Of a DNA stretch of 64,000 bases, positions 35,448 through 56,811 are shown piece after piece. The DNA is from an uncultured Chloroflexia bacterium (GTDB lineage: Bacteria > Chloroflexota > Chloroflexia > QHBQ01 > JADMIH01): positions 11,314-75,313 of the forward strand of contig CAWEQU010000005.1 in assembly GCA_963811305.1 (NCBI GenBank). Reading direction: 5' to 3'. The first letter of the stretch is position 1. Every line of letters begins with the position of its first letter. The notes beneath the pieces are model-generated. The model had not been told where the DNA came from. It did no database searches and saw only the letters and a list, made by a program, of their open reading frames with translations. The translations under genes were made by a program, and so were the position numbers.

Positions 35448-35537
35448 ATGCAGGAATAGGGCAGGCAAATACAGTGGTCTATATCTTGCATTCTACGAAT
35501 GGTCACACGTGTGGGCAGCTACCAGGAGGGAAGAATC

Positions 35538-38500
35538 ATGCCAGGTTCGAAGAATAAATCTAGCCGCTCCAGATTAATATTGAGCGCAATCCTGCTCTTG
35601 CTTGTCGCTACAGTAGCAGGGCTGGTGTCGCGGCTGAATACGGCTCCTACTGCCTTCGGGCAGGGTAGCTCGATCATCCCTATAACCGACAAGCGAGGTC
35701 CCAACTACCCTCCCGGACCGCCACGCGATCCAGGCGGCCTCGTCTTCAATGTAAGCACAGTGGTCGACGCGCAACGTCAGGTAGGCGAGCCGGACGTCGT
35801 GGTTTCACCCATCTTCACACCCGGCAACCCAACCTCGGCAGATATTTACGCCAGCGGCCCCTGGGGTGCTTCCACAGAGCAATCGTATGCCTGGAAGTCC
35901 ACCGATAACGGTGACACCTACCACGCCATCGGCAGGATACGGCCCGACATAGGTCCAGGTGGGGGTGATACCTCCACCGAGGTAGACGACCAGAATTTCC
36001 TCTTCATGACCGACCTCGAAGCGCTGACCCAGGTTGCCTCCGCCCGTAGCACCGATGGGGGAGACACCTTCACCCGCAACTCAGCCGTCTCAGACTTCGT
36101 GGGCATAGACCGCCAGTGGATGGCGTTAGACAACGGTCTATCCCCCCTCCCTACCGACAACACCGAGTTCCTCACCTACAGGCAGGCAGCCGCAGGCTCC
36201 TTTATGAAGTCTGCACTGACCACAGATCCAACTCAGACTTTTATAAACGCTCAGGCGAATTTCCCTGCGGCCATGAATTCAGGCGCACCCTGTGGCGACC
36301 TTATATTCGACCCGCACGACCGCTACCTCTATCTCCCCTGCGGTAGCGGGCAGCAAGTTGAAGTCGCAAGGGCGCACGTTGACCCCGGCCAGCGCACAGG
36401 GCTGGTCTTTACCAGCACCCTCACCCCGGCAGGCGTGGGCGACGTCTCCAACCTCTTCCCGGTGCTTGCCACCGATACCGCAGGCAACGTTTACGTCACA
36501 TACGTGGACGACGCCGATTTCAACGTCTACCTCACATATTCAACAAACCATGGGCAGACGTGGAGCAACAGGCTGCGCGTCAACGGCGACCAGGCAAATA
36601 CCGCCCTCTTCCCCTGGGTTACAGCCGGGAGCGATGGCCGGGTAGCTATCGCCTACCTGGCTACCGACCGGATAGGGGACCCCAACAGCTTCCCCAGCTT
36701 CTTCAACGATAGGGCGGGCGCGAGCACGGTGAAGTGGCATCTCTACATGAACTACGTGATGGGGGCCAATACTTCTAACCCCACCGTCTACCAGGTGCAA
36801 GCCAGCGACCACCCGACACACTACGGCCAGGTCTGCACGGCGGGCACCCTTTGTGTAGCCACCGGGGGCGACCGCACGATGGCCGACTTCCTCACTATAC
36901 AAAAAGACAACACTGGCGCGGCCCGCATCATTTACAACGACACTACGAACCAGCATCACGGCGCGTCGGTCTTCGAGGTGCGGCAGATAGGGGGGCCATC
37001 TCTCTATGGCACCACCCTGAGCGGCACGCGCCCCACCAATCCCGTTACGGACCCCGCGAACGACGCGCACTACCCACATTTCTGCATTACCGTGCCGGGT
37101 TGCCCCAAGCCTAACTATGACGCCCTGGATATCGAGGGGGTGGGCATTATCGAGGATTTCGCCAATATCACGGTCACGATGACCATCTCCGACCTGAACG
37201 CCACGCGCATCCTTCCAGGAGCATCTTCGGTGATATGGCTGACGCGCTGGCAGGCGTTGGCTCAGGGTGACGGCAATCCTCCCGACGAGGCTTACCGCAT
37301 ATTCTATGCAGGAGCCAAGTCTACAGGAGGAGGCGCGCCCACATTCTTCTACGGGACCACCACCGCAGACGATACTTCAGCAGTCGGCTGCACGCCCAAC
37401 AGTTTCCCGCAGAATTGCAAGCTCCTCTTTTATCCCCAACCCGTGGGCGGTAACACCACCGGCACATTCGACCCGGCCACCGGTGTGATAAAGATCACGG
37501 TGCCGCGCAACGCATTCCAGGGCCTCACGAACGGCTCTACTCTTTACTCGGTGACGGGCCTCACCCTGGGCACACGCGATACCGCCACCGACTTCTACGA
37601 CGACGTGGACGCAGCGAAGGCATTCAATATCACTCTCGCGAGTGGTCCAAGCCCCACACCCACCAGCAGCCCAACCATCACGACCACTCCCACCCACACC
37701 GCGACTGCCGTGCCCACACCTTGCTCCCCCTCTACCCTCCTCTCCGAAGGATTTGAGAGCGGCACGTACGGCGTATTTACCGCAACTACCACACTCGGCA
37801 CACTGCCCTGGGTCATCACTAACACCCTCTCCAGCTCAGGTACGTATTCAGCCCACGTCGACAACCCAAATGAAACTTCCGACCAGATGATGGAGATGGT
37901 GTCTACCGTCACCGTACCCGCGGGGGCAACGCAAGCGCAGCTACGCTTCAAGCACACGTTCAGCTTCGAAAGCCCCGACTTTGACGGCGGCGTGCTGGAG
38001 TACACGACCAATGGCACCCTATGGCTGAACGCCGATGCGCTCATCATAGAGGGCGGGTACAACGGCACCATTACGGGCGCGCCTTCGTTGGCCGGGCAAC
38101 CTGGCTGGGTCAACCAGAGCGCAGGTTACCCTGCCTTCAGACAGGTTACGGTGGACCTCATGTCGCTGCTAGGGCAGAATGTAAGGTTCCGATTCAGAGA
38201 GGCGAGCGACGTAAACGGCCCTGCGCCAGGCTGGTGGGTAGACGACGTATCCATCCTTGTCAGCCAGGGCGCGTGCCCGACAACAACTGCGGTTAGCGCC
38301 AGCCCGACCCCGGCAAATACAGCTACCAGGGTGCCCACGGTGACGCTCCCCACGCAGACCCCAGGTGGGCCTACCGCCACTCCAGAGCCACCCTCACCGA
38401 CGGCTACCGTCTGCCCGCTCACATTCTCCGACGTACAACCTGACAACATCTTCTACCCCTTCATACGCTGCCTGGCGTGCCGGGGCATCATGAGTGGATA

Positions 38501-39080
38501 CCCGTGTGGTGGGCCGGGCGAGCCATGCGATGGCAATGCTAACCCCTACTTCCGCCCATACAACGACATAACCAGGGGGCAGATAGCCAAGATTGTCTCT
38601 AACTCGGCGGGCTTCGATGAAGACCCAGGGCCGCAGCTATATGAAGATGTGCCCCCGGGCAGCCCATTCTATGCCTGGATAAACCGCCTATCGATGAGGG
38701 GACACATGGGAGGCTATCCTTGCGGGCTAGTGCCGCAAGAGCCATGCATAGAGCCAGATAACAGGCCATACTTCCGGCCCACCAGCAGTGCCACACGTGG
38801 GCAGCTAGCCAAGATTGTATCGAACGCGGCAGGCATAGAGAGCGAGCCGCAAGGGCAGTTCTACACAGATGTGCCGGAAGACAATCCCTTCTACCTGTGG
38901 ATTATGCGCCTGACTGACCAGGGCGTGATGTCCGGCTACGAATGTGGCGGTCCAGGCGAGCCGTGCGACGATCAGAACAGGCCATACTTCCGACCCTTCG
39001 CCAACGTTACCAGGGCGCAAGCAAGTAAGATAGTAGCTAACACCTTCTATCCAGGCTGCCAGACGCCAAGTGTACGATAA
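35538..39080 (+). CDS. Surface protein: BNR/Asp-box (sialidase-like propeller) region + beta-sandwich region + 3 SLH domains
   Basis: ATG 35538 with AGGAGGG 8 nt upstream and a signal/anchor LILSAILLLLVATVAGLV. Asp-boxes STDNGDTY, STDGGDTF, STNHGQTW. Thr/Pro linkers. The C-terminal triple SLH is as in the two genes upstream. Confidence 0.8.
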   Translation: MPGSKNKSSRSRLILSAILLLLVATVAGLVSRLNTAPTAFGQGSSIIPITDKRGPNYPPGPPRDPGGLVFNVSTVVDAQRQVGEPDVVVSPIFTPGNPTSADIYASGPWGASTEQSYAWKSTDNGDTYHAIGRIRPDIGPGGGDTSTEVDDQNFLFMTDLEALTQVASARSTDGGDTFTRNSAVSDFVGIDRQWMALDNGLSPLPTDNTEFLTYRQAAAGSFMKSALTTDPTQTFINAQANFPAAMNSGAPCGDLIFDPHDRYLYLPCGSGQQVEVARAHVDPGQRTGLVFTSTLTPAGVGDVSNLFPVLATDTAGNVYVTYVDDADFNVYLTYSTNHGQTWSNRLRVNGDQANTALFPWVTAGSDGRVAIAYLATDRIGDPNSFPSFFNDRAGASTVKWHLYMNYVMGANTSNPTVYQVQASDHPTHYGQVCTAGTLCVATGGDRTMADFLTIQKDNTGAARIIYNDTTNQHHGASVFEVRQIGGPSLYGTTLSGTRPTNPVTDPANDAHYPHFCITVPGCPKPNYDALDIEGVGIIEDFANITVTMTISDLNATRILPGASSVIWLTRWQALAQGDGNPPDEAYRIFYAGAKSTGGGAPTFFYGTTTADDTSAVGCTPNSFPQNCKLLFYPQPVGGNTTGTFDPATGVIKITVPRNAFQGLTNGSTLYSVTGLTLGTRDTATDFYDDVDAAKAFNITLASGPSPTPTSSPTITTTPTHTATAVPTPCSPSTLLSEGFESGTYGVFTATTTLGTLPWVITNTLSSSGTYSAHVDNPNETSDQMMEMVSTVTVPAGATQAQLRFKHTFSFESPDFDGGVLEYTTNGTLWLNADALIIEGGYNGTITGAPSLAGQPGWVNQSAGYPAFRQVTVDLMSLLGQNVRFRFREASDVNGPAPGWWVDDVSILVSQGACPTTTAVSASPTPANTATRVPTVTLPTQTPGGPTATPEPPSPTATVCPLTFSDVQPDNIFYPFIRCLACRGIMSGYPCGGPGEPCDGNANPYFRPYNDITRGQIAKIVSNSAGFDEDPGPQLYEDVPPGSPFYAWINRLSMRGHMGGYPCGLVPQEPCIEPDNRPYFRPTSSATRGQLAKIVSNAAGIESEPQGQFYTDVPEDNPFYLWIMRLTDQGVMSGYECGGPGEPCDDQNRPYFRPFANVTRAQASKIVANTFYPGCQTPSVR

Positions 39081-39099: not shown

Positions 39100-39255
39100 A
39101 GCGAGCATACTGACGCACTAACGACTCTTTGAAAATATATAAAATGAAGGTTCGGCTACGCCGAACCTTCATTTTATATATTTTCAAGCTCCCCTCCCCG
39201 TTGGAGTGAGTTTATGCATGGGCAAACGTGCATTTATAGTTCGGCCCGAACTAGG
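39100..39255. mobile_element. Degenerate copy (E4) of the element at 55584-55796, containing a perfect 26-bp-stem hairpin (39131-39185)
   Basis: agcgagcatactgacgcactaacgactctttgaaaa..hairpin..ttcaagctcccctccccgttggag..tgagtttatgcatggg aligns with the reverse complement of 55600-55780. The termini are degraded. Confidence 0.45.
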
Positions 39256-39393
39256 GCGAATAAGTGCGCCTAACAAAACCGCGGCGCAAGTAGGCGAGAA
39301 AGCAGGATGGTTGCGAGCCATGGGATCGAGTCGAAGGAGCGCCTAGCGCCTAGGGCGCCACCGGTTTCTCCGAAGGCGGTGACGGTGGACGCT

Positions 39394-39834
39394 TCAGAAG
39401 AGTTCCTCGGCCAGCGCGACGATGATGCCCGCAGGGCCTCGCATGTAGCAGAGTCTGTACATGTCCTCGTACTGGGCCACCTCGCCGACGAGTTCGGCGC
39501 CGCCCGCGCGCAGGCGAGCGACAGTGTCGTCGACGCTTTCGACTGTAAACATGACGCTCCGCAGGCCCAGCGTGTTCGGCGGTGCGATCGCCGGTTCGAT
39601 CTCGACCAGTTTTGGATTGCGAAACTTCGTCAGCTCAAGCCGCCCGTGCCCATCCGGGGTCCGCATCATAACGATGTCGACTTGGACACTTTCGAGCCCG
39701 TTGACGCGGTCCACCCACGGGCCCTCGACCGCCGCCTCGCCTTCGAGCGTCATGCCGAGCGCGGTGAAAAAAGCGATAGCGGCTGCAAGGTCGTCGACGA
39801 CGACGCTGACGTGGTCCAATCTCTTGATCGTCAT
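39394..39834 (-). CDS. VOC-family (glyoxalase/bleomycin-resistance/dioxygenase fold) protein
   Basis: MTIKRLDHVSVVVDDLAAAIAFFTALGMTLEGE.. 146 aa, in a locally GC-rich stretch. Confidence 0.8.
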   Translation of the reverse strand: MTIKRLDHVSVVVDDLAAAIAFFTALGMTLEGEAAVEGPWVDRVNGLESVQVDIVMMRTPDGHGRLELTKFRNPKLVEIEPAIAPPNTLGLRSVMFTVESVDDTVARLRAGGAELVGEVAQYEDMYRLCYMRGPAGIIVALAEELF

Positions 39835-40077
39835 GTCCCTAGTATAGCAGATATAGCAGAGGCCGTGCGCGGCGGTCCAGGGTCCAGGCCGACCGTTCTC
39901 GCGAGTTGGACGCGGTTAGCCGTCTTCAGCACGAACAGGATCCCCATCAGCGCCGCCCGGTCCCGACACCCGGGGCCGTCCGCCCTTGGGCTCCGGCGGC
40001 TCCGGCGGGAGCAGCGGCGCGATCCGCGCCCACAACGCATCAGGCAACAGTTCCTTCGCCATGGCACCCTCCTCCAT
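39835..40077 (-). pseudogene. Remnant of an IS5/IS4-group transposase N-terminus (DUF4096-like), frameshifted and truncated
   Basis: Hand translation gives MEEGAMAKELLPDALWARIAPLLPPEPPEPKGGRPRV in one frame, continuing as DRAALMGILFVLKTA.. in the ORF 39831..40067 frame. This resembles the LSD..W..I.PLLP...GRPR..DR..L.GIL.VL+TG pattern. No DDE domain follows. Confidence 0.5.
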
Positions 40078-40140
40078 GGCTCCTATTCTGCTTCCTCGGC
40101 TGCTTACGCGACGGTTTTGTTAGGCGTACTAAGTGCTGCA

Positions 40141-41614: not shown

Positions 41615-41641
41615 TACTTACTCCAATCTGAAAACTAGGTG

Positions 41642-41684
41642 TTCTCTGGTGAAAGATGTGCTAAGCACATCTTTCACCAGAGAA
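41642..41684 (-). terminator. 21-bp-stem hairpin after copA (terminator candidate), of the TTCTCTG(G)TGAAAG family
   Basis: ttctctggtgaaagatgtgct a agcacatctttcaccagagaa, 13 nt downstream of the copA stop, followed on the minus strand by ..agttttc. Confidence 0.55.
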
Positions 41685-41696
41685 CTAAAAAGAAAG

Positions 41697-45237: not shown

Positions 45238-45290
45238 TTTCTCTGTGAAAAGTCGTGGGCGCGAAGCGCCCACGACTTTTCACAGAGAAA
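45238..45290. repeat. Perfect 25-bp-stem hairpin (TTCTCTGTGAAAAG family) in a divergent promoter region
   Basis: tttctctgtgaaaagtcgtgggcgc gaa gcgcccacgacttttcacagagaaa. The outer 14 nt resemble the 41642 hairpin while the inner stem is different but still paired. Confidence 0.75.
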
Positions 45291-50089: not shown

Positions 50090-50117
50090 GTACGGGCGGC
50101 TCGCGAGCCGCCCGTAC
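50090..50117. repeat. GC-rich hairpin unit (GTACGGGCGGCTCG/CGAGCCGCCCGTAC) just after the stop
   Basis: The 28-nt stretch gtacgggcggctcgcgagccgcccgtac is a perfect palindrome. No T-run follows. Confidence 0.55.
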
Positions 50118-54274: not shown

Positions 54275-55585
54275 GTGACCCACTTCCACAGTCACCCCCA
54301 TCAAGACCCTTTGGACGCAGCGCAGGATGGCGGTGCGATTCCGCCTCTCCACGCCTCGCAGCTTATGCTGTATGGCCTCGGCGGGCTGGCAGGCGGCCTC
54401 GTCTTCACATTGATGAACAACGCTCTGCCCCTCTTTTTGAAGGCGTATACGATGCCTTTCGGCTTCTCCCCTTTCTTCGAGGCAGGCGCGGCGGTCCCAG
54501 CGACTGTCGTGGCGCTGCTCGCTAACGAGCGCTCCCTGTTCGGCGGGCTGATACAGCCGCTCATAGGCTCCCTGAGCGACCGCACGCGCTCCCCTCTAGG
54601 GAAGCGCAGCCCGTATATACTCGCCGGGGGTGCGGGCACGGCCCTGTGCATCGCCGCACTCGCCCTCCAACCCCCATTCTGGCTGATGATAGCGGCTGTT
54701 ACCCTCGCGGGAATATTCCTCTTCGTGGCGCTTGGGCCGTATATAGCACTGCTGGCCGACATCATGCCTTACAGCCAGCGTGGGCGCGCCGGGGGGCTGA
54801 CTGCCCTCGCAGGAGTAGTGGGCGCACTTGCCGTCGGGGTCCTGGCTAACCAGATGTGGGACCGGCAGCGCTGGCTGGTATTCCTGCTGACCGCCGCGGG
54901 GGTGGCGATTTCGCTGGCGATAGTGGCCTTCAGCGTTAGAGAACCCCAGACGTCATTAGCAACGGAGAAGGTGGATACTAAGAAGGACCACCTGGCAGAT
55001 ACGGTGCGTGCAATTGTGAGCTTTCGCCCGCTCGCCTGGTACGTGGCGGCGATGGGGGTGTACTGGCTGGGAGCAGGGGCCGCTACCCCGTTTATCACAC
55101 GCTTTGGAACGGACGAGTTGGGCGCCTCGCAGGAGATGTCCTTCGCACTCCTGCTGCCATTGATCATAGCGACGGCCGTGGGGGCGGTGGCGTCAGGCTT
55201 CCTTGCCGACAAAGTTGGACACCGGAGGCTGCTGCGTCCAGGGCTGGCCTTATTCGCGGTCGGGGCTACGCTGAGCGTACTGGTGCGCGACATGGGCCAG
55301 GCGGTGCCGGTGATGGTGATGGTGGGCCTGGCGAACGGCGTGCTAACCGCGCTGCACATCCCCTTCCTCGCCGACCTGGTCCCCAAGAGGCACGCGGGGG
55401 AGTTCATGGGCTTCGCCAGCATGATATGGTCGGTAGCTCAGCCTGTGGGTGCGGTTCTGGCGGGCTTCCTTGCGGACTTTACCGGATCTTTTAGAGGCGT
55501 CTTCTTCCTCTCAGGAATATGTATGCTGGCCGCCACTCTCTTGCTCGGCAAAGTCCCCGAAAAGCCCAAAGTACTCGAAGAGTAA
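54275..55585 (+). CDS. MFS transporter
   Basis: 436 aa with a 12-TM profile and the loop motif GSLSDRTRSPLGKRSP (MFS D-R-x-G-R-K/R-like). Confidence 0.8.
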   Translation: MTHFHSHPHQDPLDAAQDGGAIPPLHASQLMLYGLGGLAGGLVFTLMNNALPLFLKAYTMPFGFSPFFEAGAAVPATVVALLANERSLFGGLIQPLIGSLSDRTRSPLGKRSPYILAGGAGTALCIAALALQPPFWLMIAAVTLAGIFLFVALGPYIALLADIMPYSQRGRAGGLTALAGVVGALAVGVLANQMWDRQRWLVFLLTAAGVAISLAIVAFSVREPQTSLATEKVDTKKDHLADTVRAIVSFRPLAWYVAAMGVYWLGAGAATPFITRFGTDELGASQEMSFALLLPLIIATAVGAVASGFLADKVGHRRLLRPGLALFAVGATLSVLVRDMGQAVPVMVMVGLANGVLTALHIPFLADLVPKRHAGEFMGFASMIWSVAQPVGAVLAGFLADFTGSFRGVFFLSGICMLAATLLLGKVPEKPKVLEE

Positions 55586-55796
55586 ACATTACTCATCCCG
55601 AATTTAAGATTTGCACCTACCTCATTCATAAACTCACTTCGAAACCCCCACCCCCGACCCCCTCCCCAATGGGGAGGAGAGTTTGAAAAAAGTACAAAAA
55701 TGGAGGTTTGGCTCAGCCAAACCTCCATTTTTGTACTTTTCAAGGAGTTGTTAGTGCGTCAGCACGCTCGCTGAAAATTCGGGATGACTGATGTTC
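55584..55796. mobile_element. MITE-like element, copy E3, filling the gap between convergent genes, with a perfect 26-bp-stem hairpin (55688-55740)
   Basis: Ends aaacattactcatcccgaattt and aaaattcgggatgactgatgttc are inverted repeats of each other and match the E1/E2 termini. The left end overlaps the MFS stop codon. Confidence 0.6.
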
Positions 55797-55803
55797 CTCA
55801 CCC

Positions 55804-56811
55804 TTAGTCTTCGTCGGACTCGGTATCTTCCTCGTCTGCCGCATCCTCTTCGGAGCCGTCATCTTCGCCTGGGATGATATAGCCATGCGCCTCTAGGACT
55901 TCTCTTAGCTCGACAAGCGACTTCTGGCCGAAGTTGCGGAGGTGGAGAAGGTCGTTGTCGCTCATCGCCAGCACCTGGGCAATCGTGGTGATGTTGGCGC
56001 GGCGCAGGGCGTTGGTCGTCCTCATGCTGAGGTTCAGCACCTCGATGGGGCGATTAGTGCCGTCGTCCTCAGGTGGTGCGGCTTCTTCCAGGGCAAGCTC
56101 GTCCACGTCGCGCCCGTAACGGGCGACGGCGGTCGCGTACTGGGTGAGTATCTGGGCCGCCTGGCTGAGAGCATCTTCCGGCTCGATAGTGCCGTCCGTC
56201 CAAATCTCCACCATCAGGCGGTCATAGTCGGTCATCATCCCGACGCGGGTATGCTCGACAACGTAATTGACCCTCGGCACAGGGGTATACATCGCATCAA
56301 CGGGTATCACGTCGGCGGGGAGGTCGGTGCGCGCTTCCGCAGCCCCGTAGCCGCGTCCCGTCTCGATAATCAGCTCCATCTCGAACGGAGTGCCGCCACC
56401 CGTCGCGTTGGCTATGTACGTATCAGGGTTCACGATCTCGACCCCTTCAGGTAGCTCAAGGTCGGCGGCTGTTATCTCCCCCGCATGCTTACCGTCCACT
56501 CTCAGAGTGGCGCGTAAATCGCCATTCGCAGCCGTTTCCTCGGACACGCGGCAGCGTATCTGCTTTACGTTCAGAACGAGGTCAATAAGACCCTCCTCGA
56601 TTCCGGGTATCTCCGTCGGGTCGTCCGGCATCTCGGCCAGCCTTATACCCGTAACGGCAGCGCCCACAATTGAAGATAGCAATATGCGCCTCAAGCTCGC
56701 GCCTATGGTCGTGCCCCAACCCTGCTGTAGAGGCTCGATCCGGTAGCGCCCATAATTGTCTTCCGCTATATCAGCAGTTATTTCCGGCAACCGTACATCA
56801 AACAAAACCAC
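55804..56811 (-). CDS. rpoA: DNA-directed RNA polymerase alpha subunit, with an acidic C-terminal tail
   Basis: YGRYRIEPLQQGWGTTIGASLRRILLSSIVGAAVTGIRL (NTD) and LNLSMRTTNALRRANITTIAQVL..LRNFGQKSLVELREVL (CTD HhH). The tail is GEDDGSEEDAADEEDTESDED. Confidence 0.9.
   Translation of the reverse strand: MVLFDVRLPEITADIAEDNYGRYRIEPLQQGWGTTIGASLRRILLSSIVGAAVTGIRLAEMPDDPTEIPGIEEGLIDLVLNVKQIRCRVSEETAANGDLRATLRVDGKHAGEITAADLELPEGVEIVNPDTYIANATGGGTPFEMELIIETGRGYGAAEARTDLPADVIPVDAMYTPVPRVNYVVEHTRVGMMTDYDRLMVEIWTDGTIEPEDALSQAAQILTQYATAVARYGRDVDELALEEAAPPEDDGTNRPIEVLNLSMRTTNALRRANITTIAQVLAMSDNDLLHLRNFGQKSLVELREVLEAHGYIIPGEDDGSEEDAADEEDTESDED

Follow-up and report, generated by a model that had tools for sequence, protein, structure and literature searches.

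How two hairpins can diverge in sequence and still remain perfectly paired is the question raised by a 64,000-nucleotide stretch of an uncultured Chloroflexia genome (contig CAWEQU010000005.1, positions 11,314 to 75,313; hereafter the window, meaning the whole stretch), which contains two copies, A and B, of a short repeated element with a long hairpin at its centre. For RNA and DNA stems in general this question is an old one, and the textbook answer for stems that change yet stay paired is paired point mutations under selection. The original prediction for this locus left a choice between strong selection on the structure and a mechanism by which one arm is rebuilt from its partner; the present analysis favours arm copying, with selection probably also acting to keep the hairpins in place. 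Specifically, we consider it probable that these are terminator-like palindromes, borne by a putative MITE (miniature inverted-repeat transposable element) and kept perfect because one arm is copied from the other in DNA (template switching at quasipalindromes), combined with selection for the presence of a hairpin. The two hairpins, each of which is the central palindrome of one MITE copy, are the following.

39129..39187, plus strand: copy A hairpin, TTGAAAATATATAAAATGAAGGTTCGGC-tac-GCCGAACCTTCATTTTATATATTTTCAA, perfect 28-bp stem, loop tac
55688..55740, minus strand: copy B hairpin, AAAAGTACAAAAATGGAGGTTTGGCT-g-AGCCAAACCTCCATTTTTGTACTTTT, perfect 26-bp stem with loop g, or 25 bp if the loop is taken as the triloop tga

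Re-reading of the sequences bore out the starting claim of two diverged, perfectly paired hairpins: over 26 nt of ungapped alignment the arms of A and B differ at seven positions, and every difference is mirrored in the opposite arm. The 26-bp stem proposed for both was correct for copy B and 2 bp too short for copy A, while the leading 'g' quoted as part of the copy B arm lies outside the perfect stem, beyond a 2-nt bulge at its base (A4 opposite T6) past which TTG/CAA pairing resumes. Homology of the flanks had also been proposed, and a computed alignment agrees, upstream (AGCGAGC.T.CTGACGCACTAAC.ACTC) as well as downstream (CTC.CCTCCCC.TTGG ... GTGAGTTTATG.ATG), placing both loci in one repeat family. 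On either strand the two copies have RNA folding z-scores between -7.4 and -8.9, and none of 200 shuffled sequences folds equally well.

This perfection is not particular to the element at A and B; it is a genome-wide and genus-wide property. The comparisons used the window's own genome (G000; 4.6 Mb in 21 contigs, 57% GC, 71% complete) and the sister genome 'Chloroflexia bacterium SMAG_U8985' (G004; 1.53 Mb used for hairpin comparisons), both metagenome-type assemblies, and gene calls throughout were crude and based on open reading frames (ORFs). Perfect hairpins with stems of at least 14 bp and loops of up to 8 nt numbered 362 in G000 versus 0 in the block-shuffled genome and are therefore far beyond chance; their stem lengths have a broad mode at 25-27 bp and a maximum of 36 bp. 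In a census of long hairpins that allowed mismatches (7-bp seed, X-drop extension), 281 of 290 were perfect, a figure free of selection for long stems that still misses bulged hairpins. The 13 mismatches found in these 290 hairpins (5 G·T, 5 A·C and 3 others) show no excess of wobble pairs. G004 gave a similar picture, with 131 of 134 hairpins perfect, and two further species of the genus that lack the MITE also carry such hairpins. In two other families of the order and class (GC 66-71%), samples of 100 kb contained none. The hairpins of G000 comprise several families as well as unique hairpins.

A profile built from copies A and B and run against G000 recovered 89 non-overlapping loci at E up to 1, 60 of them with E <1e-3. 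Unpaired substitutions, which if frequent in a larger sample would have spoken against the proposed covariation, are not frequent: 47 of these 60 loci have a perfect stem of at least 22 bp, in line with the genome-wide census. The stems are at the same time highly variable, and among 46 family copies with stems of at least 22 bp, 24 of 28 well-occupied arm columns vary, with a mean pairwise arm identity of 66% (approximately 34% divergence). The covariation check was made on 40 copies with stems of at least 22 bp and a gap-free layout of 22 bp + 3 nt + 22 bp. Watson-Crick pairing is found in all 880 stem cells, a result that is partly by construction as the copies were chosen for long stems; 21 of the 22 pairs covary, with changes on both sides in 209 cells and no one-sided changes, hence no G-U pairs. 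No shuffle out of 500 reached these values, and pairing fell to 40-50% when the partner was shifted by 1-3 columns. Under compensatory evolution in its classical form, no DNA is copied; an RNA fold, be it a terminator, a stabiliser of the mRNA 3' end or a site for RNase III, would be under selection that removes single-arm mutants and fixes rare double mutants. The essential absence of wobble pairs, both in the census (where G·T and A·C mismatches are equal in number) and in the family alignment, argues against this explanation.

Orthologous sites were also compared. The RpoA of the window is 94% identical to that of G004, and syntenic genes of the two genomes share approximately 85-89% nucleotide identity. 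Using coding flanks, 53 G000 hairpin sites were mapped in G004; a hairpin is present at 45 of these and is recognisably homologous at 27 (at least 70% arm identity, a threshold that leads to underestimation of arm divergence). The 575 aligned arm columns of the 27 pairs contain 67 substitutions and 12 indel (insertion or deletion) columns, and all 79 changes are mirrored in both species. Arm identity is 86%, compared to 76% for 40 nt of flank on each side. The rates of change in the arms and in the adjacent non-coding DNA are thus of the same order, yet the arms have no mismatches: approximately 13% broken pairs per lineage would be expected without correction, and approximately 0.2% are seen. 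Retention of a hairpin in both genomes at 45 of the 53 sites fits compensatory evolution, as do those orthologous arms that are fully conserved while their flanks diverge. In Kimura-type theory of compensatory substitution, however, stems evolve far more slowly when the intermediates are deleterious, and such models predict far slower change than the 14% arm divergence seen here beside 24% in the flanks; the mirrored indels are a further difficulty. A mirrored indel is also seen among near-identical paralogues within G000: a sister MITE with the same ends is represented by six copies (94-99% identical) that divide into three with A6/T6 and three with A5/T5 stems. Their loops are flipped between gca and tgc, independently of this division.

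A different account holds that the hairpins are born perfect and are always young, being renewed by fresh insertion of a MITE or palindrome or by ectopic gene conversion from a perfect paralogue. Unrelated hairpins do occupy 18 of the 45 orthologous sites, different families may be found at one site, MITEs differ in presence or absence between the species and nest within each other, and the arms of family members resemble mosaics assembled from few variants, all of which speaks for this account. It does not explain why unique hairpins without a paralogue (sites n=248, 216, 270 and 56) also show mirrored substitutions and indels between species, nor why copy A and the hairpin at G000 C9:263255, both older than the separation of the two species, have remained perfect. 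The exact inversion of a loop between unchanged arms and the origin of the differences among paralogues are likewise unexplained, and we regard constant renewal as an unlikely explanation.

The loops provide additional information on the level at which the hairpins matter. Among triloops, 86 of 113 (76%) are GNA or its complement TNC, compared to 12.5% expected (p ~5e-54), and most are C-GCA-G and C-TGC-G. C·G-closed GNA triloops are exceptionally stable in DNA. Relative to the sense of the upstream gene there are 27 GNA and 21 TNC loops; the transcript strand is not preferred, which argues for a hairpin that is important as DNA, whichever the strand, and against compensatory evolution of an RNA. 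Loop orientation is also decoupled from the MITE flanks, relative to which family members have GCA seven times and TGC six times. Between species, the loop in one genome is the exact reverse complement of its counterpart in 4 of 27 orthologous pairs (tac/gta, cgcaac/gttgcg, tgc/gca and tcc/gga) and is unchanged in 5; the exact flips, too, are unexpected under compensatory evolution. On the deposited strand of the whole of G000, TGC triloops outnumber GCA triloops (43 versus 22), and no relation to local GC skew or gene direction was found.

The strong excess of C-GNA-G type triloops could also indicate a signal in double- or single-stranded DNA that is read by a protein, such as a dimeric site, a transposition or replication signal, or the GNA-triloop hairpin itself, whose reader demands perfect symmetry. 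The symmetry exists on both strands, and the apex is conserved within each hairpin family (e.g., GGTTCGGC and ATGAGCGCC). The stems of the MITE family are so variable that a sequence-specific reader of the stem is implausible, the property is common to many unrelated hairpin families and to unique hairpins, and no candidate protein was identified; we therefore consider a protein-read signal very improbable.

The mechanism that we propose instead would begin with a mutation that makes the palindrome imperfect, upon which a short template switch of the replicating strand would re-copy one arm from the other. As template, the switch would use the nascent strand, by fold-back, or would reach across the fork to the opposite strand. 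The outcome would be reversion or a 'compensated' change in a single step, and a switch running through the tip would leave the loop inverted. It is also possible that outward expansion of the arms by template switching accounts for the copy-specific extension of some MITE ends. This scheme follows what is reportedly the Ripley model, and quasipalindrome hotspots in E. coli are said to have been studied by the Lovett laboratory. Short-range template switching at quasipalindromes is a published mechanism, and it predicts every feature used here as evidence for arm copying. Its steps have counterparts in the literature: inverted-repeat arms are homogenised and the spacer inverted by template switching (PMC8604942); perfect hairpins can be created and maintained in one template-switch event (PMC8794818); template switching has been proposed as the keeper of perfect bacterial inverted repeats (PMC5941160); and repeat arms can be expanded outward by template switching (PMC13100816). 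Template-switch-corrected quasipalindromes (PMC7202029, PMC5941160, PMC8604942, PMC8794818 and PMC13100816) resemble the hairpins described here in their one-step perfection, their mirrored multi-base and indel changes, a spacer or loop that is inverted if the switch passes through it, and arms that can be extended outward. They differ in that the present case is read from comparative data at an unusual scale, with approximately 290 loci, 97% of them perfect, stems of 25-36 bp and a genus-wide distribution. The probable process is a known mutational one that is seen here very clearly, and the rate of arm re-copying relative to point mutation appears to be very high.

The function that keeps the hairpins at their sites, and the element that carries them, can be judged from the two loci in the window, which contain the following features.

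35499..39080, plus strand: gene for a 1193-aa SLH-domain protein, 3' end towards copy A
39100..39128, plus strand: copy A, remnant of the MITE 5' module, AGCGAGCATACTGACGCACTAACGACTCT, identified by alignment to copy B and the family
Within 39129..39187, plus strand: copy A upper stem GAAGGTTCGGC/GCCGAACCTTC, followed by the T-rich arm, terminator-shaped
39188..39222, plus strand: copy A, remnant of the MITE 3' module, GCTCCCCTCCCCGTTGG..AGTGAGTTTATGCATGGG
39394..39834, minus strand: glyoxalase/VOC-family gene, convergent on copy A
54275..55585, plus strand: MFS transporter gene, convergent on copy B
55594..55786, minus strand: copy B, complete 193-bp MITE with left repeat, 5' module, hairpin, 3' module and right repeat (G000 C5:66907-67099)
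55594..55605, minus strand: copy B right terminal inverted repeat, AAATTCGGGATG, with extended repeat AGTAATGTT at 55585-55593
55645..55680, minus strand: copy B 3'-module hairpin, CCTCCCC-att-GGGGAGG, over a run of four G-tracts, GGGGAGGGGGTCGGGGGTGGGGG
55775..55786, minus strand: copy B left terminal inverted repeat, CATCCCGAATTT, with extended repeat AACATCAGT just outside at 55787-55795
55804..56811, minus strand: rpoA (RNA polymerase alpha subunit), 3' end towards copy B

Both copies follow a gene (the SLH-protein gene and rpoA, respectively), with a second gene convergent on the other side. Of 31 family copies that could be oriented by their flanks, 30 face one gene 3' end or more and 15 sit between convergent genes, and 37% (83/225) of inter-ORF hairpins with perfect stems of at least 18 bp lie between convergent genes, compared to 17% of all intergenic regions. 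The palindromes have a GC-rich upper stem, a triloop cap and an A-rich 5' arm paired with a T-rich 3' arm, and therefore have the shape of a terminator on either strand. Copy A takes the form GAAGGUUCGGC-uac-GCCGAACCUUC followed by AUUUUAUAUAUUUUCAA, and copy B was scored as terminator-like on the minus strand by a simple consensus scan. Judging from this layout, an intrinsic terminator that reads on either strand would be the most likely function. Bidirectional intrinsic (Rho-independent) terminators likewise have a GC-rich stem followed by a U-rich tract, an A-tract upstream and an enrichment between convergent genes, but the hairpins here are far longer (25-36 bp), lack the usual mismatches and bulges and mostly have triloops. 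In addition, 156 of the 290 hairpins have terminator polarity and 44 have the opposite polarity; the latter, a sizeable class with a T-rich 5' arm, are perfect in 42 of 44 cases despite having the wrong polarity for canonical termination.

The location at gene 3' ends and the terminator shape are in favour of compensatory evolution, while the equal perfection of hairpins that are not terminator-shaped is not. Considered together, the lack of wobble pairs, the mirrored indels, the loop inversions, an arm rate near that of the flanks and the perfect non-terminator hairpins indicate that selection on an RNA stem alone is insufficient, and compensatory evolution without DNA copying is quite improbable. 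Alongside arm copying, selection most probably keeps a hairpin present at gene ends and, at some loci, maintains its sequence. A family with T-rich 5' arms was also observed in its own right, with variable perfect stems TTCTTTTTCTnTCAATTTCCGCCCT between the conserved flanks CCAAACTTTC and GGAATTCCTTCCC (G000 C11:122991, C17:46074, C8:99143, C3:180515 and others).

In the element itself the variable perfect hairpin stands between two conserved parts, the 5' module (..TTCAGCAAGCGTGCTGACGCACTAACAACTC) and the 3' module (ACTCCCCTCCCCATTGGGGAGGGGTCGGGGGTGGGG..GTGAGTTTATGCATGAG). At the borders of complete copies are CATCCCGAATTT and AAATTCGGGATG, and the terminal inverted repeat of 22 nt consists of AAACATGAGW followed by CATCCCGAATTT; the former represents a further 10 nt of inverted repeat beyond the 12-nt core (median outward extension 10 nt). 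The core has 97 matches in G000, including 28 pairs spaced 180-210 bp apart, which is the size of full copies, and these are without coding capacity. Three different, unrelated interiors have the same ends. The same ends also bound a single-copy, 1626-bp insertion sequence (IS; G000 C6:430025-431650) with a 477-aa open frame (466 aa recovered by tblastn) that contains a Y-2-R-3-E-6-K motif, YARRWQIEMSFRYGK, of the IS4 type. From these features the element is apparently an undescribed MITE family of approximately 193 bp, which may be mobilised by the IS4-type transposase. Among 40 relatives searched, the family is abundant only in G000 and G004, and many G004 copies are absent at the orthologous sites of G000. 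No Rfam match was found in the whole window at gathering thresholds, with only sub-threshold generic hairpin hits for copy B at E up to 1, and a distant-mode search of the PLSDB plasmids gave no match to the element.

At the two loci in the window, copy A is an old, end-decayed MITE copy that is common to the sister species, and copy B is intact and specific to its lineage, having inserted between rpoA and the MFS gene convergent with it. The terminal inverted repeat of copy A is missing or decayed, and approximately 26 nt (the G-rich part) of its 3' module is deleted relative to the G004 orthologue and the family consensus. The orthologous site of copy B in G004 lacks the MITE and carries an unrelated perfect 25-bp hairpin instead. 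The extended repeat AGTAATGTT of copy B abuts the stop codon of the MFS gene, and a mechanical 101-aa frame (55438..55743, minus strand), to which no gene is assigned, traverses the copy. The CCTCCCC/GGGGAGG hairpin of its 3' module is conserved in most full-length family members.

Several observations weigh against the combined reading, in addition to the choice of long stems in the 40-copy set and the omission of bulged hairpins from the census. The template switch would be deduced from comparative data, and no event was directly observed. Of the 27 orthologous loops, 18 are altered other than by a simple flip, and replacement of whole hairpins also contributes to the differences between species. 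At copy A and at C9:263255 the arms are 100% identical between the species, with flanks that differ by approximately 12% at the former and are approximately 96% identical at the latter; at some loci, therefore, the arms are also under purifying selection. The hairpins with T-rich 5' arms are unexplained by a terminator function. As regards the MITE, no target-site duplication, one of the usual marks of such elements, was found, and no direct repeats were seen outside the 22-nt repeat; the transposase matches DDE_Tnp_1 only marginally (23.8 bits versus a cut-off of 23). The flanks of 5-8 of 31 copies extend as an inverted, copy-specific repeat beyond the MITE ends, and the target-site duplication may be very short or may have been erased by such outward extension of the palindrome.

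Building on template switching, it is possible, if doubtful, that the genus has an unusually active and perhaps dedicated palindrome-perfecting process that works on single-stranded DNA hairpins nucleated by C-GNA-G. Re-copying and flipping would then be far faster than point mutation, stems would drift freely yet remain perfect, and MITEs and IS with AAACATGAGW-CATCCCGAATTT ends would preferentially enter hairpin tips. If this were true, entry of a MITE into a terminator would be harmless because the element brings its own replacement terminator hairpin.

The system is of wider use since the genus offers hundreds of natural loci with orthologues in a sister species, at which one-step re-copying of arms and inversion of loops would be visible without ancestral reconstruction. 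It offers a way to put numbers on how fast template switching proceeds compared to point mutation. In addition, a selected RNA structure does not follow from the mere presence of covariation in a long perfect palindrome, which is a caveat for R-scape-style inference. The family is also an apparently new MITE that brings terminator-like hairpins to gene ends in an uncultured soil lineage.

Among known systems, close parallels to the element are bacterial MITEs or small repeats with terminator-like or RNase III-cleaved hairpins, such as SPRITE from Streptococcus pneumoniae (PMC3049150) and the Neisseria Correia elements (reviewed in PMC10969869). They are likewise short, non-coding, multi-copy and intergenic, often at gene 3' ends, with terminal inverted repeats, a stable hairpin, nesting in other repeats and ends in common with an insertion sequence. 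The present family has no sequence relationship to them (the Rfam and plasmid searches were negative) and no target-site duplication; its interior palindrome is hypervariable yet perfect, and the flanking modules are the conserved part. REP/REPIN sequences (associated with RAYT, Y1 transposases) are also dispersed extragenic palindromes, but membership was rejected as the family lacks a GTAG head, has inverted-repeat ends of the DDE type and has no association with RAYT. Integron attC sites were rejected by inspection (no integrase search was made), given that the stems are perfect with TTGAAAA/TTTTCAA ends, rather than imperfect with extrahelical bases and RYYYAAC/GTTRRRY.

Other candidates concerning the origin and spread of the family were also rejected. 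Insertion with duplication of a palindromic CATG or into an AAACATGTTT target palindrome has no support (0 of 24 genomic AACATGTT sites are centred in a palindrome of at least 8 bp). The C-terminal region of the SLH-domain protein (window 38560-39080) belongs to a very large paralogous family, with 59 similar gene ends in G000 and dozens in G004; spread of the element mainly together with these 3' ends was dismissed, as a family hairpin follows only 10 of the 59. An IS481-like element was rejected as the autonomous partner, having inserted into a family copy: it interrupts the 3' module of that copy at G000 C5:180006-181706 and has a 343-aa ORF for an rve-type integrase and an apparent GGGAGGG duplication. 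A second MITE type of approximately 182 bp has the same 22-nt ends and consists of a long imperfect inverted repeat of CCAAGA-type units (GGAACCGCCAAGACGCCAAGAGCGCCAAG...); it occurs at G000 C10:17685-17865, C16:62773-62954, C8:62259-62440 and other loci, and nests at the hairpin position of other family members, for example at C8:411675-411913 and C8:284742-285021.

The 3' module of copy B contains a canonical G-quadruplex motif (window 55645-55667, minus strand), GGGGAGGGG(G)TCGGGGGTGGGG(G), with four G-tracts and loops of 1-2 nt. The same motif is found in most full family copies, where it directly follows the terminator-like palindrome and overlaps the alternative CCTCCCC/GGGGAGG hairpin. 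Beside copy A, the segment at window 39258-40130, which holds the glyoxalase gene, is absent from the orthologous site in G004 and is 84-91% identical to loci elsewhere in G004, G006 and G011; this suggests a recently inserted or exchanged segment. Three more perfect hairpins in the window lie outside the MITE family, at 41641-41685 (22 bp), 45238-45290 (25 bp) and 50090-50117 (14 bp). The first has identical arms and a different loop in G004, and the G004 site of the second carries an unrelated 30-bp hairpin.

An assembly artefact was dismissed as the source of the hairpins: they lie inside long contigs, a read is longer than any of them, and two independent assemblies agree on them. The end of G004 contig C8 and the start of C9 break exactly within the copy A palindrome, with an overlap of approximately 41 nt, and palindromes of this size evidently fragment de Bruijn assemblies. 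G000 also has two Y1_Tnp (IS200/RAYT-type) homologues (C8:381825-382166 and C9:309330-309572), which were not linked to the MITE family. A separate set of recurrent GC-rich palindromes in this genome has a GTAG head (GTAGGGGCGTGCCG.CGGCACGCCCCTAC) and looks REP-like (C5:138862, C5:314521, C9:147710, C21:5315 and others).

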